A stretch of DNA of 64,000 bases from Escherichia coli O157 typing phage 4: sequence record KP869102. The stretch is one strand, 5' to 3'. The notes below the pieces were generated by a model. That model had not been told where the DNA came from. It did no database searches and worked only from the letters and a program-made list of their open reading frames with translations. Position numbers and translations under genes: made by a program. Below, one piece after another: positions 13,134 through 28,903 of this stretch (within the stretch, counting starts at the first letter, position 1; each line of letters starts with the position of its first letter).

Positions 13134-13475
13134 CTACTCAAGGTCTTCAGAGTCAAGCTCAAAAAGAATCAAACTGTGCATGCCTGCAGAGAGATCAACA
13201 CACCCTGCAACAATAAGGGTCTGATAGTAAGGTTCAGCACCCTCGATGTCTTCGTTAAAATCCACAACAAGGTAGTCACCTTTGTTAAAGGTGTATTTGT
13301 CCGATGTGAATGCAAAACCTGCCCAGTCCCCTACTGCAGGATCTTTATCAGTCACCTTTGTTAGCAGTAGATCTTTTTCACGAGATCTTTTAGTAAAATC
13401 GTGAATCACAACATCCTTCTCTTCAGGAGTTGGATTGCCACACACGTAGTTAACGATATTTCTCCACAAACTCAT
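13134..13475 (-). CDS. hypothetical protein
   Basis: ORF track 113 aa. Confidence 0.5.
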   Translation of the reverse strand: MSLWRNIVNYVCGNPTPEEKDVVIHDFTKRSREKDLLLTKVTDKDPAVGDWAGFAFTSDKYTFNKGDYLVVDFNEDIEGAEPYYQTLIVAGCVDLSAGMHSLILFELDSEDLE

Positions 13476-14842
13476 ACGTCCCCCTCTTCGGCTCTGGTTT
13501 CAAAATCTTTCCTGACAATTTTGTCTAAGTCAGGGAATGTTGTATTGTAAAACTCTACGACTCGCGGGTCAACAATAATGTCAACTTCTCTTAGTGGACG
13601 CAACAAGTTTATTCCTTGTATTGTCTTAACTCTGCTCAAAGCGACATACGTCATCCCAGGAGAGAAAGCTCCGTTCTTTCCAAGGTCTAGGTTGTAACAA
13701 TCTAGCGTAAGTCCTTGACTTTTATGAGATGTTACGGCGTACCCAGATTTCAGAGGAAGTTGCTTGTATGACCCAATCACTACCCTCTCTATAAACTTCT
13801 CCATCTTCCTTTCTGCAATGTTGTATCTCTGAGATGGCTTATACTCGTTATTCTCCCACAACCTCTGCTCTATGTCAACCTGTGTTCCATCTTCAAGCTC
13901 TACCACCACCGCCTTGTTCTTAAATTTAACAATTGTGGCACGTGTTCCGTTAACATAATAAGGTACTTTGTGCGTCGGGTCAACATCGTTGGCGGTTATC
14001 ATAACTTTCATGCCAATTTTCAACTTCATCTCCTGCTCAACTGGCAGGGTGGAGGGAAACTTACCCTTCATTTCCCCAGTGTATACCTTCTCCGGGGCGT
14101 TGATGGCATCATAGAACCTTCTGTTCACTTCCTCTGCTTGTTTGTTGGTGGCGCAAATTGTGAGAGCGTCTGTTGGTACACCGCCTTTGTAACAGCGAGC
14201 ATTAAGTTCTGCTACAACCTCTTTTATGCGACGACCCTCACGAACACAGTTGAGCATTGTGGCAAATCGAATAGACTCCTGTCGGAACTGATCTATTAGG
14301 GCTATGTTGTGGAGGTCAAGCTCTTTCCAAGATTCGGTATAGCAACACAGGTCTGTATGGTAGAAGTTGAAGTAGGCTTCCTTCTCCATAGAAGAGACAA
14401 CAGGAGGTGCCTGGTAAAAATCGCCAAACAATATGACCTGTATGCCTCCGAAAGGTTTGTCATTTTTTCGAAGGAAGCGAAGTTTCCTATCCATCTCTAT
14501 AAACTTATCAGCACGGATCATAGAGATTTCATCGATAATCAGGATGGTAAATGCCTTGCTTTTCAAAGGCTTTGCTGTTTTTGCCCTTATTGCGGTCCAG
14601 TCTGACTCCATGCTCACACCTGCTGCAAGATCGAAGGTTCGGTGTGCTGTTGCTCCATTAACGTTTAAAGCGGCTACCCCTGTCGGGGCAACCGTTATGC
14701 AAGAGTCTCCATACATTGACTGGATCATGTTGATGAGGTACGTCTTCCCACAACCTGCGGGTCCTGAAACGAAGACATTCTCACCGCTCATGATTGCAAC
14801 GAGGGCAGCATCTGTGCCTACATCATACTGCCCTTTTTCCAT
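13472..14842 (-). CDS. SF1 DNA helicase, Dda/Pif1/RecD-like
   Basis: 456 aa; Walker A GPAGCGKT; IIDEISMI; C-terminal YAVTSHKSQGLTLD. Confidence 0.85.
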   Translation of the reverse strand: MEKGQYDVGTDAALVAIMSGENVFVSGPAGCGKTYLINMIQSMYGDSCITVAPTGVAALNVNGATAHRTFDLAAGVSMESDWTAIRAKTAKPLKSKAFTILIIDEISMIRADKFIEMDRKLRFLRKNDKPFGGIQVILFGDFYQAPPVVSSMEKEAYFNFYHTDLCCYTESWKELDLHNIALIDQFRQESIRFATMLNCVREGRRIKEVVAELNARCYKGGVPTDALTICATNKQAEEVNRRFYDAINAPEKVYTGEMKGKFPSTLPVEQEMKLKIGMKVMITANDVDPTHKVPYYVNGTRATIVKFKNKAVVVELEDGTQVDIEQRLWENNEYKPSQRYNIAERKMEKFIERVVIGSYKQLPLKSGYAVTSHKSQGLTLDCYNLDLGKNGAFSPGMTYVALSRVKTIQGINLLRPLREVDIIVDPRVVEFYNTTFPDLDKIVRKDFETRAEEGDV

Positions 14843-16047
14843 TACGCCTCCTCGTAAAGAATGTCGATAGTGTTACCGTCTCGGTCAACCACGTATTCAA
14901 TCGGGTCTCCGTCCTTGCGTGCTTCCGGAGCTACCACAATCTCATAGCGGCATGCACGGCACTTAGCGCTATTGTGTTGGTATGGCACACTAACCACATC
15001 TGCAGGGTCAACCATGACAGTCATTACAGTGCCGTAGCTCTTCGCATACTCTTTGCTGGCGCAGTGTAAGCCATAGGAGCACGCAGCTTCAGGATCATCC
15101 TCTACAAAGTTACGAGGCATGGATACAAAAGCACCTTGGTATTGTGGGACTTTACCACTGTGCCAATCCACCCACTTGCTACCGTTAAACTGAACCCCTT
15201 TGTAGCAAATGATTCGACCATCTTCTGCAATCTGAATATCATTGGCCTGCATAAAATCGTAGAGCATGTTTACAGATTTTGCAGAAGGATTGCGTAGCAG
15301 GCGAACGAGGAATTTCACATAGCGGTCATCCAGCGTTCCGTCTGCATAATCTTTCTCAATTTTCTTTGCAATGGTGGATCGCATCTCTACACCGTAGTAG
15401 TAGAGCTTACCATCTTTCATGATCAGGTTGTCTGCAAGTGTGGTGAACTCATTCTTGCGTTCCAGCCAGACAAGGATTTCACCAATTGCCTCGTCATATT
15501 CCTGAACAGAGATATGGTCGAAGACTTTCTGGTAAACTTCCTCACTTTCGCTGCGGCGAATTTCAAAAATGCCTTCGTTGCAGGTGATCTGGAGGAGTTC
15601 CCCACAAATAACTACCAAAGGCTCGATGCTTCGAGTTTGTTGCTGAGACACACTGCTCACCACCTCCAGCACCGGATCTTTGACTTCTACTAAAGGTTCT
15701 TCTGACTTGATTGCCACCCCAGTGAACCCCACACCGTGAACAACACACAGTGGGTATACCACGCCCCAACGTTTAACGGAACCTTCGCCTAAGTCTAAGA
15801 TCATGGCGTACTTACCATTATCTTCCAATCCATAGCGGAATAAACGGGCCTCTTCGCGGGTTTCAAAATCCTCACGGGTGTAGCAGACGCTGTCACGGTC
15901 AGGATCGAACAACTCTGGGGCACCCACTGCCAGTGTCCAGGTTGTGTCGCCTTTCTCAATGGCACATGTGAAACCCTTCTTCTCAAGTTCTGCACGGCGG
16001 TCTCGTGCTTCTTTACGGGTTTTGAAATGTTCGTAGATGAAAATCAT
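14842..16047 (-). CDS. hypothetical protein, putative rIIB-like (by position next to rIIA-like gene)
   Basis: 401 aa; ATG with AAGGAGA RBS; the contig overlap places it directly downstream of the rIIA-like gene; no diagnostic motif. Confidence 0.5.
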   Translation of the reverse strand: MIFIYEHFKTRKEARDRRAELEKKGFTCAIEKGDTTWTLAVGAPELFDPDRDSVCYTREDFETREEARLFRYGLEDNGKYAMILDLGEGSVKRWGVVYPLCVVHGVGFTGVAIKSEEPLVEVKDPVLEVVSSVSQQQTRSIEPLVVICGELLQITCNEGIFEIRRSESEEVYQKVFDHISVQEYDEAIGEILVWLERKNEFTTLADNLIMKDGKLYYYGVEMRSTIAKKIEKDYADGTLDDRYVKFLVRLLRNPSAKSVNMLYDFMQANDIQIAEDGRIICYKGVQFNGSKWVDWHSGKVPQYQGAFVSMPRNFVEDDPEAACSYGLHCASKEYAKSYGTVMTVMVDPADVVSVPYQHNSAKCRACRYEIVVAPEARKDGDPIEYVVDRDGNTIDILYEEA

Positions 16048-16120
16048 CTTGGTCTCCTTATTTGATGTTATTCTTTGTATCGATCAGTTCACGGTATTCA
16101 ATCATAGCAGGAGTGTCCCA

Positions 16121-16130
16121 NNNNNNNNNN
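16121..16130. other. assembly gap (N10)
   Basis: Run of 10 N. Confidence 0.95.
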
Positions 16131-16440
16131 CTCAATGGTGACTACGTGCAGTGTTTTAGCCACGCCCAGTGGGTCGTCTACCTTAAACCCGCGATCCAGG
16201 ATGATCTGCAACGCATTGATGCTATGCCCCGTTTCCACACCGATAGGGTCGTAAGAGGATTTACGCTTGCCACCGGAGCCTTGAGTGCCGTTCTCTGCCT
16301 TAGGGGGATAGGCTTTGAAACCACTGATAATGTTTCCGGTGTCTTTGTCAACAATGGCTGCAACACGACCACCTACCACCAGATCTTTAAGCTGCTCATC
16401 GGTGACAACCATAGCACCTTCGCCAATCTTGTGGTCATTG
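16131..16440. repeat. 310-bp near-identical copy of window 21-330 (synonymous variant contig)
   Basis: By-eye alignment: about 6-7 substitutions; track translation of 16098-16454 (-) is identical to my translation of 21-330 (-). Confidence 0.85.
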
Positions 16441-16450
16441 NNNNNNNNNN
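16441..16450. other. assembly gap (N10)
   Basis: Run of 10 N. Confidence 0.95.
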
Positions 16451-16605
16451 GCACGATTGCATACCTTTGACAGATAATCTCATTACAGAGCGTTTAAGAG
16501 CTTCCTACAAACAAATCTCTCTTTCGAGCGTAGCGAGAACGCACGTCCGTTTTGACCCAAATCACCATACGCTCGGATTTTAACCAAACCCTCGCGGCGT
16601 TTCTA

Positions 16606-16634
16606 TTGACACATTACCGCTCCAGTGATAATAT
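16606..16634 (+). promoter_or_regulatory. sigma70-type promoter (TTGACA-17-TAATAT)
   Basis: -35 TTGACA at 16606-16611, 17-nt spacer, -10 TAATAT at 16629-16634; ATG at 16667 follows. Confidence 0.5.
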
Positions 16635-16666
16635 CCACACATAGTTTGTAGAATATGGGGTACACT

Positions 16667-16756
16667 ATGAGAACATTGTCCGAAGTTTTGGTGGTGATCC
16701 TGATGATCATTACGTCCATAGCGGCTGTTGCCGGAATACTCACGGGTGGAACATGA
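16667..16756 (+). CDS. hypothetical 29-aa hydrophobic micropeptide
   Basis: Manual ORF MRTLSEVLVVILMIITSIAAVAGILTGGT just downstream of the promoter; weak RBS. Confidence 0.35.
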   Translation: MRTLSEVLVVILMIITSIAAVAGILTGGT

Positions 16757-16965
16757 TAAACACACATGCATCTGAAGAGACATCCAAAGGAGTGACTATA
16801 TGTCCCTTGGCTGAGCCAGTGAAAGAGGAAAACTTCGATTCTGAAGATTCTCCATCTTCGCTCCAGGTAGATCCTGAGGCTGATGACCTAACGTGGGAAG
16901 ACATCGTAGATATCTGGTTCTCTATTATGCCTGAGCACGAAGAGTTCAGGGGTGGTAGACTATGA
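16753..16965 (+). CDS. hypothetical acidic protein
   Basis: ORF track 70 aa; same strand as promoter; no clear RBS. Confidence 0.3.
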   Translation: MINTHASEETSKGVTICPLAEPVKEENFDSEDSPSSLQVDPEADDLTWEDIVDIWFSIMPEHEEFRGGRL

Positions 16966-17086
16966 AGCACCGAGCCCACACAGGTTCCTCATGCTAAAGC
17001 ATGGCCTGAAGAGGCAAACGTGCATAATTCCTGTACATTGGGACGTATAAAACCCTGTTCACATTCTCATTTCCAGAGGAGATTTC

Positions 17087-17302
17087 ATGAAGATAGAAAT
17101 ATTTGGTGGAGCTGACAATACTCGTGGCCTGATTTACCTTGAATTCGATGAATCATACCTGCCAGAGGTGTTAAATATGGACTCTGTTGCTGATGCTTTG
17201 GGAGTAAGTCCTAAAGATCTCTACTCTGGTGCTGAGATTGATGGTTGGGAGGAGACCATGAACATTGATTTCAGTGAAGTAGGTGATGAACCACTGGACT
17301 GA
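17087..17302 (+). CDS. hypothetical acidic protein
   Basis: ORF track 71 aa; RBS AGGAGA upstream of ATG. Confidence 0.5.
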   Translation: MKIEIFGGADNTRGLIYLEFDESYLPEVLNMDSVADALGVSPKDLYSGAEIDGWEETMNIDFSEVGDEPLD

Positions 17303-18142
17303 CACACAATTAGCTACCCGGCTAAAGTGCTGGGAGCACCTATAACACATCTTTCAACTAAATTTCCTACCACCACAATCACTTACCTCCCACACATGAC
17401 TGTTTGCTTGTTTAGTGAGCAGTCATGCCTTGACATTCTTGCCTATCCTGATAAAATTAAGTTCTTCTCTTTTCTTTTACCGAGTAATTCGGGTTTTCTG
17501 TTCTCTTCGGTTTGAAGGGGTATGGAGATACACCTGAGTGAACAGGGTGAACAACCGAACATTTGGCTATGGCATTAGCATGGCGAAGCGGACGGGTGAC
17601 GAAAGAGGGGCCGGAGGACACCAGTCACTGCCATATGGTATATGGGTGATAACCTGAAGAGTCTGAATAAGTGTTTAAGTACCAGTCAGAGGAAAAGGTG
17701 AATGGTAGCCGAAGGGGGAGGGGGGTTTCTTGTATCTTTAATTTGTATATTATGTATACACTTGTAAACCAATCTCATTTGAATTTGTTTACCACACAAA
17801 GTGGATAGAGACAAATATTACCTATTAAACTTGAATTATTTATAGAAAATACCACAACACTACTTAAGTCTTTGATTTTACACACAAATCCTGCAGATAT
17901 TCACCCTCCATATTTAACATACTTGTAACATATTCCATACTCTACCTGCCCGATCAATTCACCCAACTACATCCCCATATTTTCCCTGTCTGTACTACCC
18001 CTGCCCCGCCGGGAGTCCCGTCATATCTGGCTTTCCAGCAAATATCACACCCACAAATATCATTGCCTGAAGAGGGTTTCGTCCCATAATACATGCCTTA
18101 CCTGAAGAGCGCTTCATATACCCCGTAAATTTTTTAATTGAC

Positions 18143-18172
18143 CCCCTCCCCGCCGCCGGAGGGGTCGGCTTT
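18143..18172 (+). terminator. possible intrinsic terminator hairpin (weak T-run)
   Basis: Stem CCCCTCC/GGAGGGG with loop CCGCCGCC followed by TCGGCTTTTCC. Confidence 0.25.
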
Positions 18173-18719
18173 TCCCACACAGACCTGAAGAGTCAGCCAG
18201 AAATATCTGAATGGACCCAATTCTGCCCTGTTATGAGCCGTAGCGACTGGAGTGCTGCCAGGCGGACGAAATGGGAATACTTCTCATTCTTATAACAATT
18301 CTCAAATATCGAGGCAGTGAGGCAAATTAATAGGTAAGGCCGTTCACATAGTGGCACAACATTTGCAGTCTATCTGATGTGGTTGAATGAGAATACCTAT
18401 CATTGTGAGAATAGTTATCATTACGGGCAATTTAACATAATACCCATTATGCGCACCACTGGCGATACATACAGGGATTGATAACATGAGTTACTGTTTA
18501 CGCATATAACAATTATATTTCTTATCATTTGTGTGGGATATAGTTAGCAGCCGATAGATTAGATATTGACCTGCGGACTTCTGACCGTCTAGACGTCTAA
18601 ACGCCCACACAACAAGGCTTATACATACATCGCTGAATGTAAACATGGCCGCAAAAATGCTACCATACAAGATTGTAAATTTTTCATGCAGCACTTGACA
18701 AAGAGGAGAAAAACTTGTC

Positions 18720-18762
18720 TGACACTTTAGACATACTGGTGACACAATATGACACTTTAGAC
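18720..18762. repeat. direct repeat, 2 x TGACACTTTAGAC
   Basis: Identical 13-mers at 18720-18732 and 18750-18762. Confidence 0.8.
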
Positions 18763-18779
18763 TTAATTGACATGCCTGA

Positions 18780-18956
18780 CTGTTTACGCTGTCACTATTC
18801 GCGCTATTACTATTCACTCCCTTTACTGTTCACGCTCTTACTGTTTACATGCTTAATGGTTTACATGCTTAATAGACTGCATGTCTAATAGTTTACATAG
18901 CTAACTGTTCACATACTTATCATTTACATGATTGACTGTTTACACAGAGATGATAA
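18780..18956. repeat. iteron-like array of TGTTTAC(A) motifs, including a tandem 16-bp unit
   Basis: (C)TGTTTAC at 18782, 18843, 18859, 18891, 18948 plus variants CATTTACAT, CTGTTCACAT, CTTTACTG; GTTTACATGCTTAATG twice in tandem at 18843-18874. Confidence 0.75.
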
Positions 18957-18963
18957 GCCATGA

Positions 18964-19234
18964 CATTCGTTTGCATGACAATAATTAACAAGATAACAAT
19001 TGACAAGCTAACAGCCAACAAGCTGACAATTAACTTGTTTACAATAGATGACATAATATAAAAGCAGGGCAACTATTAGAAGATCTATAGTTGCCTTGCT
19101 TGTTATGTCATGATTAACTAAATACAAGGCAACTATGATCTGATTAATAGTTTGCAAACAAACTATCACGGGGGTGATGGTTACTGCTTTTATATTATGT
19201 CGCGACTCCGTCGCGCCATGCCATTCGTTTGCAT
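18964..19234. repeat. 13-bp direct repeats CATTCGTTTGCAT bracketing the palindromic element
   Basis: Copies at 18964-18976 and 19222-19234. Confidence 0.8.
19050..19201. repeat. 152-bp element bounded by perfect 18-bp inverted repeats with nested palindromes (MITE-like or cruciform-forming)
   Basis: GACATAATATAAAAGCAG at 19050-19067 is the exact reverse complement of 19184-19201; internal inverted copies of AGGCAACTAT/ATAGTTGCCT and palindrome ATAGTTTG..CAAACTAT. Confidence 0.75.
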
Positions 19235-19850
19235 AGTTGCCTTATTGTTACAGATAAAATAATTGTATTGTTAATTATTTCTTATCTTTCTATTAGTCAT
19301 CTAATGATTCCAGTCAATATAGTAATGTACAGTAAACATTAGACGACTAAAGATTTATCTGCTTATAATAACTTACCGTGACAATTTCGGACTGTTTACG
19401 AAAAATGTTGGCACCTAAGCTGATTTATGTTATGCAGTTTACACGAATAATTATTTTATGCAGGTATTGACTATTCCATTATTCTATGGTTGGAATAAAT
19501 ACTTAGCAGACTATAGAATGGTGAGCGTACGTAAATTCTGAGATCTGGCGGCTATAGTTATACTCGATTTTTCACGTAGAGCACGCTTTTGTGGTTATGT
19601 AAGTGTATGACTTATAAAGATTTTTAGTTGTTGACAAGACACTGAAGATATGCATCAGGTTAAATTTTGTGCAATAGCTGCATTACGTGCAATTTTGGAA
19701 GGAAAAACGGGTAAAAATAGCCCTGCTACCACACAATGAAAAGTTATGCAATAGTTATTTTACATGTATATTTGTACAGTGTGTGGGGTTGATGGCTCGT
19801 CAATTATTCCACTTGCCAGGTAGGGCCGTTTATGGTAGGGGGAAGATCAG

Positions 19851-19876
19851 ACAAAAAGAAAGGGGCCTAAGCCCCT
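19851..19876 (-). terminator. intrinsic terminator
   Basis: Hairpin AGGGGC-CTAA-GCCCCT preceded on plus strand by an A-run (U-run on minus transcript), just downstream of the 19896 gene end. Confidence 0.55.
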
Positions 19877-19895
19877 TGATAATTCAGTTAAAAAA

Positions 19896-20315
19896 TTATA
19901 ATGATTCGTATATTTCAAAAATCCGATTTGCCAGGTCGTTACGGTACCGGAATTTTTCATCACGTTTGATCATAAGATCTTTATAGCCGTACTCTTTAAG
20001 CACTTCATTAACTTTATGGCGGCACACCTTCATATTATCCTGAGCGTCACCAATAAACCTGTTGCTATGGTGCATGGCTTTAATTTCTTCTTCCAGGACC
20101 AGGGCAACTATGCGGACCGGATCAAGCTGATAGGCGGTAACATCAATGCGGCATTGTAAACGGCTTTTTACGTCTGCCACCGGATATACTGCAACCTCTT
20201 CCCCGTCAACATTGACAATAATTAGTTTACCATCGATTTCGAATCCTTTCGCCGCCGGACCGTGACAAAAAGCGTTATCAAAGCTATATGCCGGATTATT
20301 AGATTTAATGTTCAT
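19896..20315 (-). CDS. hypothetical protein
   Basis: ORF track 139 aa; RBS GAGGTAAAAACACC before ATG. Confidence 0.5.
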   Translation of the reverse strand: MNIKSNNPAYSFDNAFCHGPAAKGFEIDGKLIIVNVDGEEVAVYPVADVKSRLQCRIDVTAYQLDPVRIVALVLEEEIKAMHHSNRFIGDAQDNMKVCRHKVNEVLKEYGYKDLMIKRDEKFRYRNDLANRIFEIYESL

Positions 20316-20354
20316 GGTGTTTTTACCTCTTAGTTAATTTTCTTACAACTTCCC

Positions 20355-20383
20355 TTTAAAAAAGAATATAGCAAAACTGCCGA
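20355..20383 (-). promoter_or_regulatory. sigma70-type promoter (TTGACA-17-TATATT on minus strand)
   Basis: Reverse complement gives TTGACA, 17-nt spacer, TATATT upstream of the 20315 start. Confidence 0.45.
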
Positions 20384-20460
20384 TCCTTGTCAATAAGGAT
20401 AGCATAATTTTTATGTGATCAAGGGGCTTTATTGCCCCCCTGACCATGTAACTTGTTGTA

Positions 20461-20724
20461 TTATTTGTTATTCATCCAGTTTTCCCAAGCTGCCTGATAA
20501 TCTGCTTCACTGCGGCGGATCTCTTCTTGCTCTTCAAGTCGGATCTCTTCTTCCAGGTACCCCAGGATATCGGCTTTTTTGGTCTGGCGTAACATCCAAT
20601 CATCTTTTTTACGGGTAAAGATCTTATATGCTTTCTCGCAAACCTCTTTTTTGCTACCTTTTTGGACTTCAAGAACTTTGTAGGCCATGTACTGAACTAG
20701 TTTGAGCTGATCAAGACGTTTCAT
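20461..20724 (-). CDS. hypothetical protein
   Basis: ORF track 87 aa; RBS AGAGGT; preferred over the overlapping 20472-20672 frame. Confidence 0.5.
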   Translation of the reverse strand: MKRLDQLKLVQYMAYKVLEVQKGSKKEVCEKAYKIFTRKKDDWMLRQTKKADILGYLEEEIRLEEQEEIRRSEADYQAAWENWMNNK

Positions 20725-20784
20725 GATGTTTACCTCTTTATGCGGTTCTGATTAGTGGGCCTTTTGGCCCGTGTCATTATCTTA

Positions 20785-21057
20785 TTACTTATGGCGGCAG
20801 AATTCAAGCGTTTTTAATTGATAATCTTCCTCAGCCTGGAGTACGACCGCCTCGATCATTTCGTTGGCATTGTTAAAGCCATAACCTTTAGCGAAATCAT
20901 CCGCGCCACCTTCGTGATCATGTTCTGCGTTCATCGCTTCCACAAAATGGAATTCCAAATTGTTGAGGTAGGGGCTTGATGTTCCGTCCTCTTTTTCGAT
21001 GAGATCCCAAATAGCATTAAAACGTGATTCTACTTCTTGATTAATCCAGCTTGACAC
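20785..21057 (-). CDS. hypothetical protein
   Basis: ORF track 90 aa. Confidence 0.5.
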   Translation of the reverse strand: MSSWINQEVESRFNAIWDLIEKEDGTSSPYLNNLEFHFVEAMNAEHDHEGGADDFAKGYGFNNANEMIEAVVLQAEEDYQLKTLEFCRHK

Positions 21058-21268
21058 AGTGTTTTCCTCTCTTCTGGTTGTTGTGTGGGCACTTTTGCCC
21101 CTTCAAGATAAATGTTACCCCACCCCATGGCAGATGTCAACGGTTTTTATAGTTCTTATATGACAGGCAGGCCCGGTGATTGTCTCCCCCCGTCGCCAGG
21201 TGCCTGCCGTGAAACAAGTATAACAAAAAACAGGACCATTGCAAGCCCTGTTTTGTAGTTTATAAATA

Positions 21269-21460
21269 TTATATTTTTTCGCCTATGTAGTCCGGTCGGT
21301 TTTTCTCTGTCATGCGCTTTAGCAATTCTTGCATGTTGCTTATGGCTTGTAGTGTATCCCCTTCCAGGCTTGAATCGACATAATCAGGATCGTCTATGAC
21401 CTTTCTATGATTATGATAACGCAGTACCGCCAATACCTTTCTGACTTGTTCGATATTCAT
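21269..21460 (-). CDS. hypothetical protein
   Basis: ORF track 63 aa. Confidence 0.45.
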   Translation of the reverse strand: MNIEQVRKVLAVLRYHNHRKVIDDPDYVDSSLEGDTLQAISNMQELLKRMTEKNRPDYIGEKI

Positions 21461-21472
21461 TTTTACCGCTCT

Positions 21473-21607
21473 TTAAAACAAGGTGCCAACCGTTTCCAAT
21501 AGATCACTGACTGCCAGGACAATACCGATCAGCACATATCTAACCATAAGGGGAAAGAGCGCCAATATTGCCACCACAATCCCCAAGGTGATAATTATCT
21601 TTCTCAT
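21473..21607 (-). CDS. hypothetical 44-aa membrane peptide
   Basis: Manual ORF MRKIIITLGIVVAILALFPLMVRYVLIGIVLAVSDLLETVGTLF; below the track length cutoff; abuts the upstream gene. Confidence 0.35.
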   Translation of the reverse strand: MRKIIITLGIVVAILALFPLMVRYVLIGIVLAVSDLLETVGTLF

Positions 21608-21609
21608 GG

Positions 21610-21903
21610 TTAACGGTTCACGTAAGTTTTCCCGTTCACGGTTATGGGCAGATCCTCCAGGTCTGGATCTTCCTTAAGGTCGCGAGCAAGCTCACCGCAC
21701 CGGATACCCTCGAATCCGTAGTACTCTGTTGTGCCGTCCTTAAAAGTTTTAGCGGCAAGGCATAAGCGATAAGTAACCCCGATTTGATTGACGGCATGAA
21801 TATCCGTTAGATTAACCTCTTTTGCCAGCTCTTTAGCCATTACAGGCGCATTAAGTCCAACAACCAGGGCAACCACTGCGATCATCTTTTTCATTGTGTC
21901 CAT
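21610..21903 (-). CDS. hypothetical secreted protein (N-terminal signal peptide)
   Basis: 97 aa; N-terminus MKKMIAVVALVVGLNAPVMA. Confidence 0.55.
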   Translation of the reverse strand: MDTMKKMIAVVALVVGLNAPVMAKELAKEVNLTDIHAVNQIGVTYRLCLAAKTFKDGTTEYYGFEGIRCGELARDLKEDPDLEDLPITVNGKTYVNR

Positions 21904-21985
21904 CCTCTTTCTGCTACGTTTAAGGCGGCGGTAACCGCCTGTTTATGCTTTGTTGGTTAATTTTCGGGTATAGGTATAAATTAAA

Positions 21986-22201
21986 CTATGCTGTACGCTC
22001 AACTATAACAACGGCTTGAGGGATCTCACCTTCAACCACTATCAAGGCTTTTTTCTGCGTGATAGATATCTTTACCCGCTTCAGCGTGGCGGTAAAATCT
22101 TTCATTTCGTCACGTGGTGTTTTAGTGCAATACCAGATCTCAGGCTTGCCGATCTGTAAGTTGCGTAAAAATTCTGTTTTGCCTGTTTTGTTAGTGATCA
22201 T
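21986..22201 (-). CDS. hypothetical protein
   Basis: ORF track 71 aa. Confidence 0.45.
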   Translation of the reverse strand: MITNKTGKTEFLRNLQIGKPEIWYCTKTPRDEMKDFTATLKRVKISITQKKALIVVEGEIPQAVVIVERTA

Positions 22202-22210
22202 TTGGCAACC

Positions 22211-22315
22211 TCACCCGATACCGTTGGAAGACAAGATCGCATTAGCCATGGTTGCAATCAGGCCAATACCCAGGGCAATAACCAAGATCACTGCATCGAT
22301 TAATTTCTGTTTCAT
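22211..22315 (-). CDS. hypothetical 34-aa membrane peptide
   Basis: Manual ORF MKQKLIDAVILVIALGIGLIATMANAILSSNGIG; weak RBS. Confidence 0.35.
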   Translation of the reverse strand: MKQKLIDAVILVIALGIGLIATMANAILSSNGIG

Positions 22316-22392
22316 GGTGTTTATTCTCTTCTGTTAGTAACCTTATTCATGGGGCCGCTACCACAGCCCCAAGGTAAGGCAGCTATGTGCTT

Positions 22393-22638
22393 TTAGTGTT
22401 TCATTCCAACCATCGCGGCACGGATCGCCGTAGTGCTGTACTTGAAGCCGTCCGGGGTCTTATCTTGTCCGGTTAGCTCCAGAAAAAGCATCATATCCCG
22501 CGCCGCATCATTACGATTAGCATTGGCGTTAATAAAGCCTTGGGCCAACCGGTACAATGACTCATCGTTATTAATCCAAAGGCTTACATTCCAATGAGTT
22601 TTGTTTTTGTAACCGTTATAACCTTTATTGCTTTTCAT
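22393..22638 (-). CDS. hypothetical protein
   Basis: ORF track 81 aa. Confidence 0.5.
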   Translation of the reverse strand: MKSNKGYNGYKNKTHWNVSLWINNDESLYRLAQGFINANANRNDAARDMMLFLELTGQDKTPDGFKYSTTAIRAAMVGMKH

Positions 22639-22729
22639 GGTGTTTACCTCTTCTTTGTTCCAGGTGGCGGATCATTCTACCACCTTATGTATTATGCTTT
22701 GTTAGATGGTTGTTTGTTGTCAAACTATT

Positions 22730-22909
22730 TTACCGATAATCATCATATGCTTTATTTACCTGGCGAATATAACATTCAAAAGCCAAATCAATAGATTTAT
22801 ATTCACGGATATACTCACCATAGGAAACCACATACATTTCTATAGCTTCCTCATATGCGAGGAGAATAGAATCTAAGCCTACGATCTCAGTCTTTGCAAT
22901 AATAGCCAT
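22730..22909 (-). CDS. hypothetical 59-aa protein
   Basis: Manual ORF MAIIAKTEIVGLDSILLAYEEAIEMYVV... with RBS AAGAGGA upstream. Confidence 0.45.
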   Translation of the reverse strand: MAIIAKTEIVGLDSILLAYEEAIEMYVVSYGEYIREYKSIDLAFECYIRQVNKAYDDYR

Positions 22910-22985
22910 GATTTTTTATCCTCTTTGTGGTTGGTGGGGTTCGTTGCCCCCTTTGATTTATATATTACAGTCTTATATGGTCATG

Positions 22986-23219
22986 TCAACTATTTTCAAA
23001 AAATTTTTCTGCTGTGATATTCTTCCCGGTAGGGTTCGCTACTTTCAAAATTTTATCATGCACTGGACGCCCAAAAGAATAAGCGCCGTACACAGTAAAC
23101 CAATAATCGCCGTCAGGTTGTACTATTACTGCCGCATATGGTACGCCTTTTTCGTTTTTGCTGACAAAATAGATCACGTTGCCATTAATAGCCTCGGCGC
23201 GTTTAATTTGTTCCATCAT
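22986..23219 (-). CDS. hypothetical protein
   Basis: ORF track 77 aa. Confidence 0.5.
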   Translation of the reverse strand: MMEQIKRAEAINGNVIYFVSKNEKGVPYAAVIVQPDGDYWFTVYGAYSFGRPVHDKILKVANPTGKNITAEKFFENS

Positions 23220-23275
23220 GATGATTTGCCTCTCTTTATTTTCATAATTGGGGGGCCTTTTCGGCCCCGCCAGGT

Positions 23276-23626
23276 TTATTTATTGATAGCGTGCAGCGGG
23301 AAAGGTACGCCAGGTTGATAGATAACCTTTACAACCTCATCAGGACAAAAGAAGTTGCAGAACTCACCGCAATAGGCCTCATCCTCTTTCAACTCTTCAT
23401 CAACATACTCAAAAAAGTAGTCGATGCTTGGATAATCTTGACCAGGGTTATAATCAACCATAGTGAGGACCAGTTCAAGATCATTGCGGATGATATGCAT
23501 ACCAGCTTTTAAATACTTCGCTTCCATTTTTACTACATCGCCAGCGGTAACAATAGCCATGGTTTTAACTCCTGTTTCTGTTAATGATTGGAGGCATAAC
23601 CCCCCTCGACAACTCTTATTATCCAT
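23276..23626 (-). CDS. hypothetical protein
   Basis: ORF track 116 aa. Confidence 0.5.
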   Translation of the reverse strand: MDNKSCRGGLCLQSLTETGVKTMAIVTAGDVVKMEAKYLKAGMHIIRNDLELVLTMVDYNPGQDYPSIDYFFEYVDEELKEDEAYCGEFCNFFCPDEVVKVIYQPGVPFPLHAINK

Positions 23627-23785
23627 ATTGTAGGGCTTGATGCAAGTACTTCTTTAAAAAATTTTTAAGTGCCTTGGAGGCCGCTGTAACGCCAAAATAA
23701 TAAAGGCCATGCAACCGCATAGCCTTTATGTGATTATATCGCTGCAGGCCCTGCTAGGGGCCTTATTTTGCATCATTTGCCGGAA

Positions 23786-24094
23786 CTATACAGAGAAAAC
23801 ATCGTTCACAATAGCGATCACAATGCCGCCCACCTTGTCACGGTCAACAATGCACAAATCACCATAGATCATGTGGTAGTCTGGATGATCTTTCACGGAA
23901 TAGTCAATGAGCGTTTTCTTGTCGTCCAGCTTTGTAACTTCCATTCTCATAACGATATGAGAATCATCAAAGGCATTATTCCGAAAAGTCATAGCCTGAC
24001 CACCAGGGCACCCAGTGATCTCCACTTCCACACCGTCTACGATCTGACCATCAAAGAAATAAAGATTATTAGCCAGGATAAACATGTTTATCAC
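23786..24094 (-). CDS. hypothetical protein
   Basis: ORF track 102 aa. Confidence 0.5.
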   Translation of the reverse strand: MINMFILANNLYFFDGQIVDGVEVEITGCPGGQAMTFRNNAFDDSHIVMRMEVTKLDDKKTLIDYSVKDHPDYHMIYGDLCIVDRDKVGGIVIAIVNDVFSV

Positions 24095-24177
24095 TCCTTG
24101 TTAACTGCGTGTTATTTTACCACGATTAAAATTTACTTTACTGATGGCCCTGGCGTCAAGGCCATCTAAAAATAAAT

Positions 24178-24378
24178 TTACAGGCCTACAATCTCTTTGA
24201 TTCGTTTAACTGCTGCCTCAGCGCCTTGGGGGTAGAAATTATGGTAACCGATCACGCGAGTGATACTAATCGCAGTTTGATGATCTTCATAATAGCCCTT
24301 GAAGATTTCTTGACCGTCAATCAGCACGGCAATTTTTTCTTCTTTTTTGAAGTTAATAACGCGGATATTGTTGCTCAT
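24178..24378 (-). CDS. hypothetical protein
   Basis: ORF track 66 aa. Confidence 0.45.
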   Translation of the reverse strand: MSNNIRVINFKKEEKIAVLIDGQEIFKGYYEDHQTAISITRVIGYHNFYPQGAEAAVKRIKEIVGL

Positions 24379-24493
24379 TTTGTTTCTCCTTTCTGGTTTT
24401 TGTGTTGGTGGGGATTAGCTCCCCGTTGATTATTATTATCCATATTTCGGACCGGATTGCAACACCCCGGAAGAAAAATTTTTTGAAAAAGTT

Positions 24494-24517
24494 AGGCCCC
24501 CAGGGATCGGGGGCCGT
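24494..24517 (-). terminator. intrinsic terminator
   Basis: Hairpin GGCCCCC-AGGGATC-GGGGGCC preceded on plus strand by an A-rich run. Confidence 0.5.
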
Positions 24518-24519
24518 TA

Positions 24520-24639
24520 TCAGTTACTTACAGCGATAAAATACATCCCTACGCCTAACAATATTTCAAGGGCGATGATCTCAAGCCATACCATAACCCG
24601 GCGCACCTTATCGGTGCGGGGCTTATCCTTGGTTGTCAT
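24520..24639 (-). CDS. hypothetical 39-aa membrane peptide
   Basis: Manual ORF MTTKDKPRTDKVRRVMVWLEIIALEILLGVGMYFIAVSN; strong RBS AGGGGGAGA. Confidence 0.45.
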   Translation of the reverse strand: MTTKDKPRTDKVRRVMVWLEIIALEILLGVGMYFIAVSN

Positions 24640-24881
24640 CGTCTCCCCCTTTCATCCTGGTAGTAGTGACGTGGTTTACAATGGCCCCCAGGAGTACCAT
24701 CACCACGCACATCACAAGAAAAATTATCTCTGTCGTTGTTCGATCCATTGTTATAAAATTCCTTAAGATCAGGCCTGAAAATAAAGCGTTCGTTATTGAA
24801 TCCATCACGCCAGGCGGCTGGCTTCAAATCTTCATCAAAGGGATTAATTAACGTGGTATTATTTAAACGGCTGGCCCACAT
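24636..24881 (-). CDS. hypothetical low-complexity protein
   Basis: ATG at 24881 with GAGAGGAA RBS; preferred over the RBS-less overlapping frame 24623-24808. Confidence 0.4.
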   Translation of the reverse strand: MWASRLNNTTLINPFDEDLKPAAWRDGFNNERFIFRPDLKEFYNNGSNNDRDNFSCDVRGDGTPGGHCKPRHYYQDERGRR

Positions 24882-25263
24882 ATTTTCTATTCCTCTCAAA
24901 TAGGCGATCCGCCTCAGTTAAACAAATCTCATGGGCGTGATCTCTGGTTTTAGCTTCATCGAAAACCTGTTGTGCAAGGCTGCAGCGTAGGGAGACTGGA
25001 AGATCACTATAATAGGCGTTGACAAATGTTTGCGCGTCATACAGGTCGGAAAATACTTTACCCTTTCTATTATCGCCTTTGTCAACAATTGCAAGGATAA
25101 CAAGTACAATAGTTGCAACCACCCCCAGGAAAATAGATATAATAAACCATAAAAAGGCGGATCTACCCATCTTGCCAGCGATCCAGGCGTTAAACAAGGC
25201 AACTAATACGGCCAAAATAATAAATTCCATTCTATGTACCTCTTTTGCAGTTCTGTTTAACAA
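24859..25263 (-). CDS. hypothetical membrane protein
   Basis: 134 aa; two hydrophobic helices (FIILAVLVALFNAWIAG and FLWFIISIFLGVVATIVLVILAIV). Confidence 0.5.
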   Translation of the reverse strand: MLNRTAKEVHRMEFIILAVLVALFNAWIAGKMGRSAFLWFIISIFLGVVATIVLVILAIVDKGDNRKGKVFSDLYDAQTFVNAYYSDLPVSLRCSLAQQVFDEAKTRDHAHEICLTEADRLFERNRKYVGQPFK

Positions 25264-25294
25264 TAAGGCGGCAAATATGCCGCCTGTTACCTGA

Positions 25295-25675
25295 TTAAAA
25301 ATTATCGCCGTAAATCTTTCCGCTTTCTGCCCACACCACCACGCGGGGCATACTATCCCACACGTCTTGTTTTAGATTGAGCGCGTGCAATTCTTCGGTG
25401 GTGCCCATACCAGGCACGGGCTGATTGTATACTGCAAAACGACCACCTGCATAATCATAGGCCAGGGTTAAATCACACTGAATCATCTTTTTGATCATGG
25501 CGTTGAGCATAGCGTTAGCCGCATACTGGTCACGTTTTAAAGGCAACTCTTTGATTAGTTTGCGATAGTTTTCAATGTGATCGCACACTGTTTCACGTGG
25601 AAGATCTTTCATATCCTCGCGAAAGGTAACCAGGTTAAACATAACGGTGTCAATAGCTTTAGTAGTGTTTTTCAT
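25295..25675 (-). CDS. hypothetical protein
   Basis: ORF track 126 aa. Confidence 0.5.
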   Translation of the reverse strand: MKNTTKAIDTVMFNLVTFREDMKDLPRETVCDHIENYRKLIKELPLKRDQYAANAMLNAMIKKMIQCDLTLAYDYAGGRFAVYNQPVPGMGTTEELHALNLKQDVWDSMPRVVVWAESGKIYGDNF

Positions 25676-25766
25676 AATGTTTTCCTCTTTGTTTTGTGTG
25701 GGGCAAACGTCTTGCCCCCCCTTGAGTTTTAATATAGCAAGTTTTTAGATTATTGCAACACTTTAT

Positions 25767-26295
25767 TTATGAAAAACTCATCTCTCCATATTCATCCACA
25801 TCAAACCGCCAATCATTGGCCTCAATAAGGCCGATCAGGTTTTCGGTAGTGAACTGTTCTAGATAGGCCTCCTCCAGGTCTACGTAAACCTTGCGGGATA
25901 GCTCCCGTACCGTCTCGGTGATCAGCTCTTCCAGGTCTTCCACTTTGTTTTCTTGTTTGGCGGTCAGATCTAGCCAGGTGGTATCAATGTATCCGCTTAC
26001 AGTGTTTTCATGGCTGTAATGGCTGTACTTGTCGCGTTCAATACTGGCTGATAACTCGCCATCGTGCATTGTGCCAAACAAGTGACGAATTGATCGGAAC
26101 TTGGTCAGGGCCTTTACTTTACGCAAGAATTTTTCTAAATCCACGTTTTCAGCACTGATTGACGCGCCGTCACCCTGGCACCAAAAGCCGGACCAATGTA
26201 CATCGGTATCTTCAAGGCCGTACTCTGGAAAAACTTGCTCTTTATAATATTCAATTACACTTTCTGCGAAAAAATCCTCTCCGCTGTGTTCTTCT
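25767..26295 (-). CDS. hypothetical protein, N-terminus cut off by the assembly gap
   Basis: Track reports 125 aa from an internal GTG, but the frame stays open upstream to the N-run at 26296. Confidence 0.5.
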
Positions 26296-26305
26296 NNNNN
26301 NNNNN
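26296..26305. other. assembly gap (N10)
   Basis: Run of 10 N. Confidence 0.95.
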
Positions 26306-26448
26306 CTTCTTCTCAAGTTCTGCACGGCGGTCTCGTGCTTCTTTACGGGTTTTGAAATGTTCGTAGATGAAAATCATCTTGGTCTCCTTATTTGATGTTA
26401 TTCTTTGTATCGATCAGTTCACGGTATTCAATCATAGCAGGAGTGTCC
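26306..26448. repeat. exact 143-bp copy of 15977-16119 (contig-end overlap)
   Basis: Identical sequence by eye; contains the start of the 14842-16047 gene and the stop of the rIIA-like gene. Confidence 0.85.
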
Positions 26449-28370
26449 CGATATTTCAAGCCCACATGCTTCAAAAGTGGATATTTCTTTTCCAATCTTG
26501 CAATATAGGCCTTCCCGCACTTAACCCGGTTGGCGATTAAGATTTTGGCACGATGATTTAGCTCACTGTGCTTCCACGCGGTGTTACCTTCCCACTTGTG
26601 GAAATGTGGCCGATAATTTCCAAAATCCTGCATGGGGATAATTTTCCCTAATTGTCTATACAGGCTGTCATATGAAGTTTCATTTGCTGCGCGAGTCAGT
26701 AAGAATTTCCAGGCGTCCTCTTTCAACAAATGTTCCACATTTTTCTCTGTAACATACTGGCAATCAGGATTAGTCCAAAGCAGACGGGATTCTGATACCA
26801 GGTACAGGTCTTCCCCTTCAGGAATCTGGAGTGCCGCACGCACACGGTCATAATTTTGCTGGTAGATGTTACTCAGCTGTCCCAGCCAACAACTTCCACG
26901 TTGGATATCACCCTCATAAGGAATGCAGTGCTTAATCTTCTTGAACTCTGCCTTAGTAATACGTTCACGGCGGAAGTAACCATCCTTCTCAAGCTTTTTA
27001 ACCCAATAACCTGGCTCGTAATGAGTTTTTGTTTCACCTTTCTTCGCAGGTCGGCGAGGGAGCTCTGATAACAATTTGACCGTATCTGCAAAGAACGGGT
27101 GGTGTGCCGCTTCTTTAAACTCTTCCACCAGATCCGTGTTACGGCAATAGAAAACGTTGCGTCCGGTGATCTCGCTTAAGTAGTTACATTTATTTCGGTT
27201 ATATTTGCCGTCTCCGTCGTTAAATACAAGGTATACACCTCGTAAGAACTCCGACTTTCCGTAACGAGCATAGCCTATGCGGCCTTTATTTAAGCCGCCA
27301 GCGAAAATTTCACAATCGCCTAAGTCGCCAAGCCCTGTTTCTTCCCAACGGTTCCACATAAAGTTTTTGCCGAAGATGTGTCCGAACACCCCACTATTCT
27401 TCATCATTTCACGTGCTTCTGCTGAGGTTTTTGCCGTCTCCAGTTCTGCAACAACTTCTGCCCCGCGAAGACGTATACCTTCTTTAACAAAGGCCTCCAG
27501 GCGATCCTGGAATCCACCGTCGTCATGGCCCTCTATGGTCCATTCACGCCCAGGGTTAATATTGCAATCCCCGATAGGAATTTCCACGCAGATTGCAGGG
27601 TAATCGGTCAATGTCTCCAGGAACTTAGAGCGGTAAGGTTGGTGACCCATCACAACACGGCTCTCATCAGAACTGGTATAACCTTTCAGGATGGTCATTT
27701 TCCAGCCATCCTTCTCGTAATGATACTGTGCCTCAACCTTGTCACCTTCTAACATCTTACTGGTCATGGGATCGGTGACGGTGAACGGAAACTTCGCATA
27801 GCGTAAGCACGATGCAATAGCAGTGCGATATTTCAGGACATGCTCTTTCTTAACATGAAACTGAACTTTTACCCCGTTGTGCTCTTCAGTCTTCCGCTCG
27901 CGGATCTTGGTAACGTTTGGGATACCCTGATCCAAGAACAATAGATATGTGCTTTCAACACCATTGTGCACACTGATAACATCGAAAGTGTCCACCATGC
28001 TGAACGGAGCCTTTGAACCAACACCTTTATTACCTACCAGAGCATTACTGTTGCGCTTGGTTGACTCTCCAAGGTTCATGAACGTGTTGCGGACCATCTC
28101 TTCTGACATGCCCAATCCAACGTCCTGCACAAAGAAGTATGGTTCAAGGTCTGTAGGAGAGTGAATGATGATCGGTACATCACCCCGTCCAGACTCAACA
28201 TGGGAGTCTACAGCGTTGAAGATTGGTTCACGGCAGCTTGCCAGCACCTTATCTTCGTAAATCCCTTTAATAATTAGCCCAAAAGTCTCTTTGTTCAGAG
28301 AAATTGAGCCCCTGGTGACCTCCATATTTCCGGTTAGCACTGCTTTAGTTTCATTACTGTTTACAATCAT
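26388..28370 (-). CDS. rIIA: rIIA-like protein with N-terminal GHKL-type ATPase domain
   Basis: 660 aa; GHKL N-box REPIFNAVDSH, G1 box QDVGLGMS, G2 box GNKGVGSKA. Confidence 0.7.
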   Translation of the reverse strand: MIVNSNETKAVLTGNMEVTRGSISLNKETFGLIIKGIYEDKVLASCREPIFNAVDSHVESGRGDVPIIIHSPTDLEPYFFVQDVGLGMSEEMVRNTFMNLGESTKRNSNALVGNKGVGSKAPFSMVDTFDVISVHNGVESTYLLFLDQGIPNVTKIRERKTEEHNGVKVQFHVKKEHVLKYRTAIASCLRYAKFPFTVTDPMTSKMLEGDKVEAQYHYEKDGWKMTILKGYTSSDESRVVMGHQPYRSKFLETLTDYPAICVEIPIGDCNINPGREWTIEGHDDGGFQDRLEAFVKEGIRLRGAEVVAELETAKTSAEAREMMKNSGVFGHIFGKNFMWNRWEETGLGDLGDCEIFAGGLNKGRIGYARYGKSEFLRGVYLVFNDGDGKYNRNKCNYLSEITGRNVFYCRNTDLVEEFKEAAHHPFFADTVKLLSELPRRPAKKGETKTHYEPGYWVKKLEKDGYFRRERITKAEFKKIKHCIPYEGDIQRGSCWLGQLSNIYQQNYDRVRAALQIPEGEDLYLVSESRLLWTNPDCQYVTEKNVEHLLKEDAWKFLLTRAANETSYDSLYRQLGKIIPMQDFGNYRPHFHKWEGNTAWKHSELNHRAKILIANRVKCGKAYIARLEKKYPLLKHVGLKYRDTPAMIEYRELIDTKNNIK

Positions 28371-28867
28371 TTATTGCGCTCCTTGTAGTAGATATGGCTC
28401 CCGAATTGAGCTGTCCTCTGCATCTTTTTTGCCCATTTCGGTCGTACTTTGGTTGTATGGTAGTGTGTTGCTCCACCTGTTATATCCATAGCCATGTATG
28501 CAACATGGTTGTTATTATAGACCTTTAGAAGCATCTTTGCAAGACTTTTAGCGTGATCCCATGAATCTTTTTCTGTCACCTTAAAAGTTTTGCCGTGGTT
28601 TGTCCACGAAAACTGGTTAGGTTGGTAGACAATCTTTCTTATAGTGTCTGGGTATTTAGGGTGAGATTTCCTGTTTAATGTGGCAAACCCAGATGCCAGC
28701 ATACCCATCGTGCCATCCCCTCTAGCTTCCCTGTAGATATTACATGCCAAAATGTTTTCCTTAGTATCTGAGGGCTTGCAAGTATGATATACTTTTTGTT
28801 TTGGTGCTGCAACAACAGGCAGCGATAAAAATGCGCTCAAAATAATAGCAAAGATCTTAATTTTCAC
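28367..28867 (-). CDS. secreted cell-wall hydrolase, SleB/CwlJ (Hydrolase_2) family; endolysin candidate
   Basis: 166 aa; signal peptide MKIKIFAIILSAFLSLPVVAAP; motifs YREARGDG, ATLNRK, QPNQFSW, ATHYHTTKVRPKWA. Confidence 0.75.
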   Translation of the reverse strand: MKIKIFAIILSAFLSLPVVAAPKQKVYHTCKPSDTKENILACNIYREARGDGTMGMLASGFATLNRKSHPKYPDTIRKIVYQPNQFSWTNHGKTFKVTEKDSWDHAKSLAKMLLKVYNNNHVAYMAMDITGGATHYHTTKVRPKWAKKMQRTAQFGSHIYYKERNK

Positions 28868-28878
28868 AATAACTCCAA

Positions 28879-28903
28879 ATAGAAAATCCCCGCCGAAGCG
28901 GGG
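28879..28903 (-). terminator. intrinsic terminator (CCCCGCCGAAGCGGGG hairpin)
   Basis: Perfect stem-loop at 28888-28903 preceded on plus strand by AGAAAAT. Confidence 0.6.

Follow-up and report, generated by a model that had tools for sequence, protein, structure and literature searches.

The rIIA-rIIB pair in T4 and in Vequintavirus

In the rII locus of phage T4 (Benzer's rII), rIIA and rIIB lie in this order on one strand, separated by an 11-nt spacer, TAAGGAAAATT, with the Shine-Dalgarno sequence directly 3' of the rIIA stop; rIIA.1, gene 60 and gene 39 (topoisomerase) stand on the rIIA side of the pair, and denB.1 and denB on the rIIB side. RIIA (725 aa) has an N-terminal GHKL domain; RIIB (312 aa) carries an HTH-like segment in addition to the RIIB C-terminal domain. 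The text of a recent study reports, for T4, MM02, EdH4, SUSP1 and N4 collectively, that plating is unaffected by knock-down of RIIA or RIIB where Rex is absent, whereas in lambda RexAB hosts the knock-down reduces the EOP (Adler 2025; PMC11879866). One of the five, EdH4, is a Vequintavirus, and its proteins are nearly those described here: RIIA is identical at 655 of 660 positions (99%) and RIIB at 391 of 401 (98%).

The window (the whole 64,000-nt stretch of DNA that was analysed) comes from an rV5-like Vequintavirus, an E. coli myovirus of about 137 kb. Of its relatives, EdH4, isim, JES2013, DrSchubert/Bas50 and V5 have the same genes, 660/401-aa lengths, gene order, 10-nt spacer and neighbours, at a DNA identity of 95-99.9% and with only a few substitutions; in the window, by contrast, a scaffolding artefact divides the locus. 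The pair is already annotated in isim, DrSchubert ("membrane integrity protector rIIA/rIIB"), JES2013 and EdH4, and the finding is thus correct but not new; the main text of the rV5 genome paper of 2013 contains no discussion of rII. The V5 and JES2013 GenBank records were deliberately opened at the rIIA-rIIB junction.

The locus comprises the following features:

13472..14842, minus strand: Dda/PIF1-like SF1 helicase (PF05970, E 1e-32; phrog_325, E 6e-112)
14842..16047, minus strand: rIIB, 401 aa, SPOR-like N-terminus, disordered linker and RIIB C-terminal domain
16048..16057, minus strand: rIIA-rIIB intercistronic spacer, GGAGACCAAG, 10 nt, contig A copy, read from the sequence
26378..26387, minus strand: the same 10-nt spacer, contig D copy, read from the sequence
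26388..28370, minus strand: rIIA, 660 aa, N-terminal GHKL/GHL-type ATPase and lineage-specific C-terminal region
28367..28867, minus strand: SleB/CwlJ-like cell wall hydrolase (PF07486, E 2e-19)
28888..28903, minus strand: terminator-like GC hairpin with a T-tract, upstream of the hydrolase gene; EdH4 annotates a terminator there

As in T4, rIIA precedes rIIB on the same strand and the Shine-Dalgarno sequence directly follows the rIIA stop; RIIA again has an N-terminal GHKL domain, and the RIIB C-terminal domains are 37% identical. The two loci differ in the spacer (10 versus 11 nt), in the length of RIIA (660 versus 725 aa), in RIIB, which has 401 aa and a SPOR-like N-terminus here versus 312 aa and an HTH-like segment in T4, and in their neighbours, here the hydrolase and the Dda helicase. 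The locus is orthologous to rIIA-rIIB of T4. The coordinates and lengths of both reading frames agree with a preliminary description of the window, which also rightly placed a Dda-like helicase next downstream of the 401-aa gene.

A scaffolding artefact splits two neighbouring genes

If rIIA and rIIB form a pair, why do they stand so far apart in the window? The sequence is interrupted by three N10 runs (16121-16130, 16441-16450 and 26296-26305), which delimit four contigs: A (1-16120), B (16131-16440), C (16451-26295) and D (26306-64000). The end of A and the start of D carry the same segment, an exact identity that cannot be due to chance:

15976..16119, no strand: contig-end overlap, copy 1 (end of contig A), 144 nt, 100% identical to 26306-26449
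26306..26449, no strand: contig-end overlap, copy 2 (start of contig D), identical to copy 1
16121..26305, no strand: scaffolding insert, foreign to the rIIA/rIIB junction, consisting of N10, contig B, N10, contig C and N10

Contig B is a 98% variant of window positions 21-330 and indicates two co-assembled strains.

Taken literally, the window separates the copies of the segment by 10,330 nt, as would be the case if the segment were a true genomic direct repeat and rIIA and rIIB really lay ~10 kb apart. This reading, whose probability is negligible, is already refuted by several observations. N10 scaffolding gaps flank the blocks that lie between the copies; contig C matches a different genome region, positions 101851-111695 of the closest genome, JES2013, at 99.5%. 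A merged sequence, contig A (12000-16119) plus contig D (26450-30500), aligns to phage isim in one piece (8121 columns, 98.2%, 1 gap) and is colinear with complete Vequintavirus genomes. Finally, 87 of the 117 phage records with a match have a contiguous junction, defined as at least 80% coverage of a 661-nt merged probe in one place, and the probe is single-copy in every contiguous record listed; the 144-nt segment is therefore an assembly overlap rather than a genomic repeat. Records without a one-piece junction, V5 and JES2013 among them, are cut open at this point or close to it. Terminal redundancy was also considered as a source of the duplicate and was rejected (N10 gaps, single copy in complete genomes, colinearity).

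Each flanking contig also tells the same story by itself: A holds all of rIIB, the spacer and the last 21 rIIA codons including the stop, and D holds all of rIIA, the spacer and the first 24 rIIB codons. Within either contig, the rIIA TAA is followed by the 10-nt spacer and the rIIB ATG, so that the minus strand reads ...AAA TAA GGAGACCAAG ATG ATT.... With the artefact removed, rIIA and rIIB are confirmed as true neighbours; contigs A and D singly and the complete genomes bear out the adjacency that the preliminary description had deduced by resolving the overlap. Its "9 bp" between the rIIA stop and the RBS and ATG of rIIB captured the short spacing, but the figure is 10 nt (it was off by one or loosely worded). 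The explanation as a whole, a Vequintavirus draft scaffold with contigs concatenated in the wrong order that carries an rII orthologue with anti-RexAB function, is very probably correct.

The restored locus is tightly packed. The hydrolase stop overlaps the rIIA ATG (ATGA), the helicase ATG overlaps the rIIB stop (TAATG), and only the 10-nt gap, also annotated in isim and DrSchubert, separates rIIA from rIIB; the Shine-Dalgarno GGAG begins immediately 3' of the rIIA TAA (16058-16060 in the contig A copy). The hairpin at 28888-28903 is probably where the hydrolase-rIIA-rIIB-helicase block begins, a suggestion that must be taken as weak because the total of terminator-like sites is not above the shuffled expectation; the same holds for the counts of the promoter scan. 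Scans of the rIIA-rIIB span for tRNAs and Rfam families gave no match.

RIIA and RIIB proteins

RIIA matches phrog_612 over its full length (E 6.2e-124; residues 1-658 on profile positions 1-724 of 725) and Pfam HATPase_c_3. Its N-terminal ATPase (about residues 1-290) consists of a Bergerat fold and a transducer-like second domain, and the ATP-binding motifs of the GHKL domain are intact. BLASTP aligns the N-terminal part, residues 1-190 or about 198 aa, with T4 rIIA (28% identity, E 3e-21) and gives no significant alignment to T4 rIIA for the C-terminal 470 aa, about two-thirds of the protein. RIIA models as a GHL/MORC-type ATPase, a group whose GHKL members (Hsp90/TRAP1, GyrB/ParE, MutL, MORC, SMCHD1) show marginal sequence similarity to it: a phmmer search of the PDB reached only E about 0.06-0.1, to Topo3-beta and TRAP1. 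Unlike in these ATPases, no module of the topoisomerase, MutL-endonuclease or chaperone kind is detectable in the C-terminal part of RIIA, and it is a distinct, phage-specific branch relative to them.

RIIB is built of three parts: an N-terminal SPOR-like module (about residues 3-102) with a duplicated beta-alpha-beta-beta arrangement, which scores 21.6 bits against SPOR at a cut-off of 21; a disordered linker (about 103-142); and a conserved C-terminal domain (about 144-375). The protein matches phrog_609 (E 1.3e-61, residues 132-375) and shows 37% identity with T4 rIIB across 204 aa (E 4e-39). Both comparisons with T4 are thus positive, upholding the rIIA-like and rIIB-like assignments of the preliminary description. 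A sequence search of RIIB against solved structures gave no match, and neither RIIA nor RIIB matches an NCBIfam model above cut-off.

Does the N-terminus of RIIB bind DNA? PMC7824862 counts rIIB orthologues as specific transcription factors, and T4 rIIB orthologues were proposed to be factors that down-modulate phage transcription (Iyer et al. 2021); consistent HTH matches to T4 rIIB residues 7-50 (HTH_7, HTH_28, Sigma70_r4), each just sub-threshold, agree with such a role. But the scan that finds these matches finds no HTH in the RIIB described here, in which the N-terminus is the SPOR-like beta-alpha-beta-beta module, and the conserved C-terminal domain has neither a solved or fold-level relative nor a match to a DNA-binding fold. 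A role of this RIIB as a transcription factor is thus highly improbable, and the HTH-like N-terminal segment of the T4 type is probably a lineage-variable module that does not define the family.

Because the RIIB N-terminus is SPOR-like here and HTH-like in T4, the rII pair could be modular, with a conserved GHL-ATPase/RIIB-C core joined to lineage-specific targeting domains; if so, the Vequintavirus version might have another cellular ligand or act against Abi systems beyond RexAB. Another Abi system, the CARD-gasdermin system, is triggered by RIIB in T6. As a whole, this modular reading is unlikely. Since RIIB lacks the HTH-like N-terminus of its T4 counterpart, mechanistic details may nevertheless differ from T4.

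Probable anti-defence function

The pair is identified as the known rIIA-rIIB anti-defence pair; the 98-99% identical EdH4 proteins are reported to be conditionally required on RexAB hosts (PMC11879866). In the preferred explanation, the hydrolase, rIIA, rIIB and the Dda-like helicase form, on one strand, a chain of early or middle genes coupled in translation. RIIA, as a GHL/MORC-type ATPase, is expected to dimerise and clamp upon ATP binding; RIIB, co-expressed with it and carrying the conserved C-terminal domain, would be its physical partner. Both proteins should be dispensable on naive hosts and would counteract the abortive-infection systems of resident prophages, chiefly lambda RexAB, which, if not counteracted, would depolarise the membrane and abort the infection.

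Could the pair primarily be a module for lysis timing or lysis inhibition that works with the neighbouring hydrolase of the cell wall? Its label in the database, "RIIA/RIIB lysis inhibitor", the PHROG category "lysis" of both families and the overlap of rIIA with the stop of the SleB-like hydrolase gene all point this way. However, rapid lysis (the "r" phenotype) in T4 rII mutants counts as an indirect effect. No segment of either protein is clearly transmembrane: KD19 peaks at 0.83 in RIIA and at a borderline 1.69 in RIIB, the latter in a low-confidence beta region. In EdH4 and the four other phages, moreover, the published text describes a plating defect upon knock-down only with RexAB (PMC11879866). 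A primary lysis function is accordingly judged distinctly improbable, and anti-defence is the preferred reading.

The significance of the locus lies mainly in correct annotation: the apparent 10-kb separation is an artefact, and the window is a routine Vequintavirus sequence. The rV5-type RII proteins lend themselves to comparison, since they combine an intact GHL-type ATPase core and a RIIB N-terminus unlike that of T4 with a reported anti-RexAB action; all this is already known from published genomes and the EdH4 experiments.

Genome architecture

Contigs A, C and D are colinear with JES2013 (99.8%, 99.5% and 95.3% identity, respectively), and nearly all of the 117-125 matching phage records are Vequintavirus. 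The following features bear on the overall layout:

4084-6861, strand not given: family A DNA polymerase (phrog_17, E 4e-98; phrog_8888, E 4e-143)
7651-9729, strand not given: gp4-like fused primase-helicase (phrog_239, E 7e-160; DnaB_C, E 2e-13)
52757-53443, strand not given: baseplate protein, beside the wedge protein
53455-54945, strand not given: Baseplate_J/gp6-like wedge protein, adjoining the J-like tip protein
55051-58890, minus strand: J-like tip attachment protein (Phage_Tail_Tip, E 1e-38; Ig_J_second, E 2e-30; phrog_31, E 3e-164)

The preliminary description saw here a mosaic of an rII pair, a T7-like replisome and a lambda J-type tail. The gene combination is real: the T7-like replisome, a family A polymerase (below the Pfam DNA_pol_A cut-off, at 31.8 versus 34.3 bits) with a gp4-like primase-helicase, is present, its likeness to T7 lying at the level of protein families. 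The combination is not unusual: polymerase A, gp4-like primase-helicase and J-like tip are the standard, already annotated architecture of the genus, present in >100 GenBank genomes. Of the "lambda J-type tail", one J-like protein stands and the lambda-type tail is rejected: rather than belonging to a non-contractile tail devoid of a myovirus baseplate wedge, the protein stands beside the wedge and baseplate proteins, and Vequintavirinae are contractile-tailed myoviruses (PMC8594841).

Adjacency of rIIA and rIIB

The window is broken by three gaps of exactly ten N (16121-16130, 16441-16450 and 26296-26305) into four contigs, with rIIB in the first and rIIA in the last:

Contig A: 1-16120
Contig B: 16131-16440
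Contig C: 16451-26295
Contig D: 26306-64000
rIIB, 401 aa: 14842-16047, minus strand
rIIA, 660 aa: 26388-28370, minus strand

Both ORFs lie where the preliminary description placed them, and its proposal that they adjoin once the contig overlap is resolved is borne out. The 144 bases at 15976-16119, after which one base of contig A remains, are identical to the first 144 of contig D (26306-26449); the next base then differs between them (A vs. G), as is typical of contigs that end at a variant branch point. Each contig crosses the junction by itself: A holds the last 21 rIIA codons, including the stop, and D holds the first 24 rIIB codons. On the minus strand, the overlap reads ...ATC AAA TAA GGAGACCAAG ATG ATT TTC..., i.e., the rIIA stop, a spacer that opens with a GGAG Shine-Dalgarno sequence, and the rIIB ATG; the ribosome-binding site and start codon stand as described, but the spacer is read here as 10 nt, not 9. 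Joined as A (12000-16119) plus D (26450-30500), the sequence aligns to the complete genome of Escherichia phage isim in a single block, with 98.2% identity and one gap over 8121 columns. Of the 117 phage records matched by a 661-nt probe spanning the merged join, 87 have it contiguous (one place covering at least 80% of the probe), and each contiguous record listed has just one copy. In the non-contiguous records listed, V5 (DQ832317) and rV5_ev168, the match begins at position 1; thus, these records were opened at or near the junction. Base 1 of the JES2013 record is in turn the rIIA stop, and the record ends 10 nt beyond the rIIB ATG, echoing the T4 record, which ends in the rIIB start codon and opens with the spacer and rIIA.

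What, then, separates the two genes in the window? Contig C corresponds to JES2013 101851-111695 (99.5% identity), ~9 kb upstream of 120854, where contig A begins in that genome; it is misplaced between rIIB and rIIA, and the scaffold order is wrong. Because the merged join is colinear with isim and contiguous in 87 records, and contig C comes from elsewhere, the 10.3-kb gap between the genes is a scaffolding artefact; gene order read across any N10 gap of the window is unsafe. Contig B (310 nt) is a 98% variant of 21-330, and its six internal substitutions (165, 195, 204, 273, 291 and 294) all share one codon phase, a pattern better explained by co-assembly of a second, closely related strain from the sample than by sequencing error.

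The observation is confirmed, its interpretation is supported, and both are already known: rIIA-rIIB is annotated in V5 (DQ832317), JES2013, isim, DrSchubert/Bas50 and many others, and the pair has been noted in the literature (PMC7344957; PMC8594841).

RIIA and RIIB proteins

Both proposed protein identities hold. The match of RIIA to its family profile, phrog_612, is full-length (E = 6e-124), and Pfam HATPase_c_3 scores 34.9 bits (cut-off 25). BLASTP aligns its first 190-198 residues with T4 rIIA (28% identity, E = 3e-21), beyond which T4 rIIA is not alignable by this method. The GHKL ATP-binding motifs are intact and invariant among 22 aligned RIIA homologues (E48/N52/D55, D83-G85-G87 and G113/G116/G118-S119-K120); RIIA therefore contains a Bergerat domain and a second “transducer” domain, as in dimerising GHL/MORC ATPases, in agreement with Iyer et al.

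RIIB matches phrog_609 (E = 1e-61) and four more RIIB PHROGs, and shares 37% identity with T4 rIIB across 204 residues (E = 4e-39). The N-termini differ: residues 7-50 of T4 rIIB give a consistent, just-sub-threshold set of HTH matches (HTH_7, 23.6 vs. 23.8 bits; HTH_28; Sigma70_r4), whereas the Vequintavirus RIIB N-terminus has no HTH match and, when its 171 residues are scanned by themselves, matches SPOR at 21.6 bits (cut-off 21). In the AF2 model (pLDDT 71), residues 3-42 and 54-102 each form a beta-alpha-beta-beta unit, and a disordered linker (~103-142) leads into the conserved C-terminal domain. The orthologue in GenBank record YP-6 is already labelled “SPOR domain-containing protein”. 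This difference from T4 is a minor curiosity and no new system. No convincing transmembrane segment is found in RIIA or RIIB.

A Cys/His cluster in RIIB, CSxGLH ... KCRxCR (C323, H328, C363 and C366; window ~14950-15081, minus strand), shows no variation across 22 RIIB proteins of the rV5-like and related type and may form a metal site; T4 rIIB has Met in place of C363, so the cluster is not universal. ENA protein P0005 (498 aa) combines TPR repeats with a C-terminal RIIB portion of 99% identity; a chimera produced by assembly or gene calling is more probable than a genuine fusion.

A probable counter-defence role

RIIA and RIIB are identical at 655 of 660 and 391 of 401 residues, respectively, to the proteins of Escherichia phage EdH4, a Vequintavirus whose pair has been functionally tested. 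Adler et al. (Nat Microbiol 2025, PMC11879866) describe knock-down of RIIA or RIIB in T4, MM02, EdH4, SUSP1 and N4. For the five phages collectively, E. coli hosts without Rex revealed no defect, and plating efficiency fell when the host expressed lambda RexAB; the authors' conclusion is that divergent rII modules act as suppressors of Rex-mediated immunity. The reading best supported by these results is that rIIA-rIIB would here serve in counter-defence against abortive infection of the Rex type, as a conditionally essential pair. Judging from fold and gene coupling, RIIA would act in an ATP-dependent, clamp-like manner and may physically partner RIIB. T6 RIIB sets off a CARD-gasdermin defence system (Wein et al. 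2023); therefore, carrying rIIB can cost a phage as well as benefit it.

Genomic context

The minus-strand genes around rIIA-rIIB form a tightly coupled chain, in which the Dda-like helicase does follow rIIB:

28888-28903, minus strand: GC-rich hairpin and T-tract just upstream of the hydrolase gene
28367-28867, minus strand: SleB-like cell wall hydrolase; its stop codon and the rIIA start codon overlap in ATGA
13472-14842, minus strand: Dda/PIF1-like helicase; its start codon and the rIIB stop codon overlap in TAATG
After the helicase, minus strand: 113-aa ORF, likewise overlapping in ATGA

The EdH4 annotation has a terminator at the hairpin site, but this reading is only suggestive because terminator scan totals are no higher than the shuffled expectation.

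Elsewhere in the window lie these genes:

4084-6861: family-A DNA polymerase
7651-9729: gp4-like primase-helicase
52757-53443: baseplate protein
53455-54945: Baseplate_J/wedge protein
55051-58890: J-like protein with Phage_Tail_Tip and Ig_J domains

The preliminary description is correct for the single genes, and the replisome resembles that of T7 by protein family only. The J-like gene call stands, but a “lambda J-type tail” is overstated because baseplate and wedge proteins adjoin it and the phage belongs to Vequintavirinae, contractile-tailed myoviruses of 131-140 kb (PMC8594841); the supposed mosaic combination is merely the standard architecture of the genus.

Between the polymerase and primase-helicase genes lies a 244-aa ORF (6858-7592, minus strand), annotated as an HNH endonuclease in JES2013 and absent or different in some relatives, where alignments fragment; it is likely a mobile homing endonuclease insertion. 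In contig C, genes switch from the plus to the minus strand within ~17500-19900, a stretch poor in genes and rich in AT (GC as low as 33%); short imperfect tandem repeats (15-18 nt) lie at 18388-19034, and a tRNA/Rfam scan gives no match. In JES2013 the stretch corresponds to a gap without annotation, and in rV5 to the reported “wastelands”; it could be an origin or regulatory region.

Identity to JES2013 is 99.5-99.8% in contigs A and C and ~95% in contig D. The first 4.2 kb of contig D (26306-30500) are 99.6% identical to “Campylobacter phage C7”; 56036-56901 and 60553-62521, which lie within or close to the genes for the J-like and tail-fibre proteins, have no alignment to JES2013 at all. 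This pattern indicates recombinational mosaicism within the genus and exchange of tail-fibre modules. Among the matches are sixteen unannotated GenBank MG0656xx records named “Campylobacter phage ...” (host C. jejuni); those listed all share 96.9-99.6% identity with the present E. coli Vequintavirus sequence, and mislabelling or contamination is the probable explanation.
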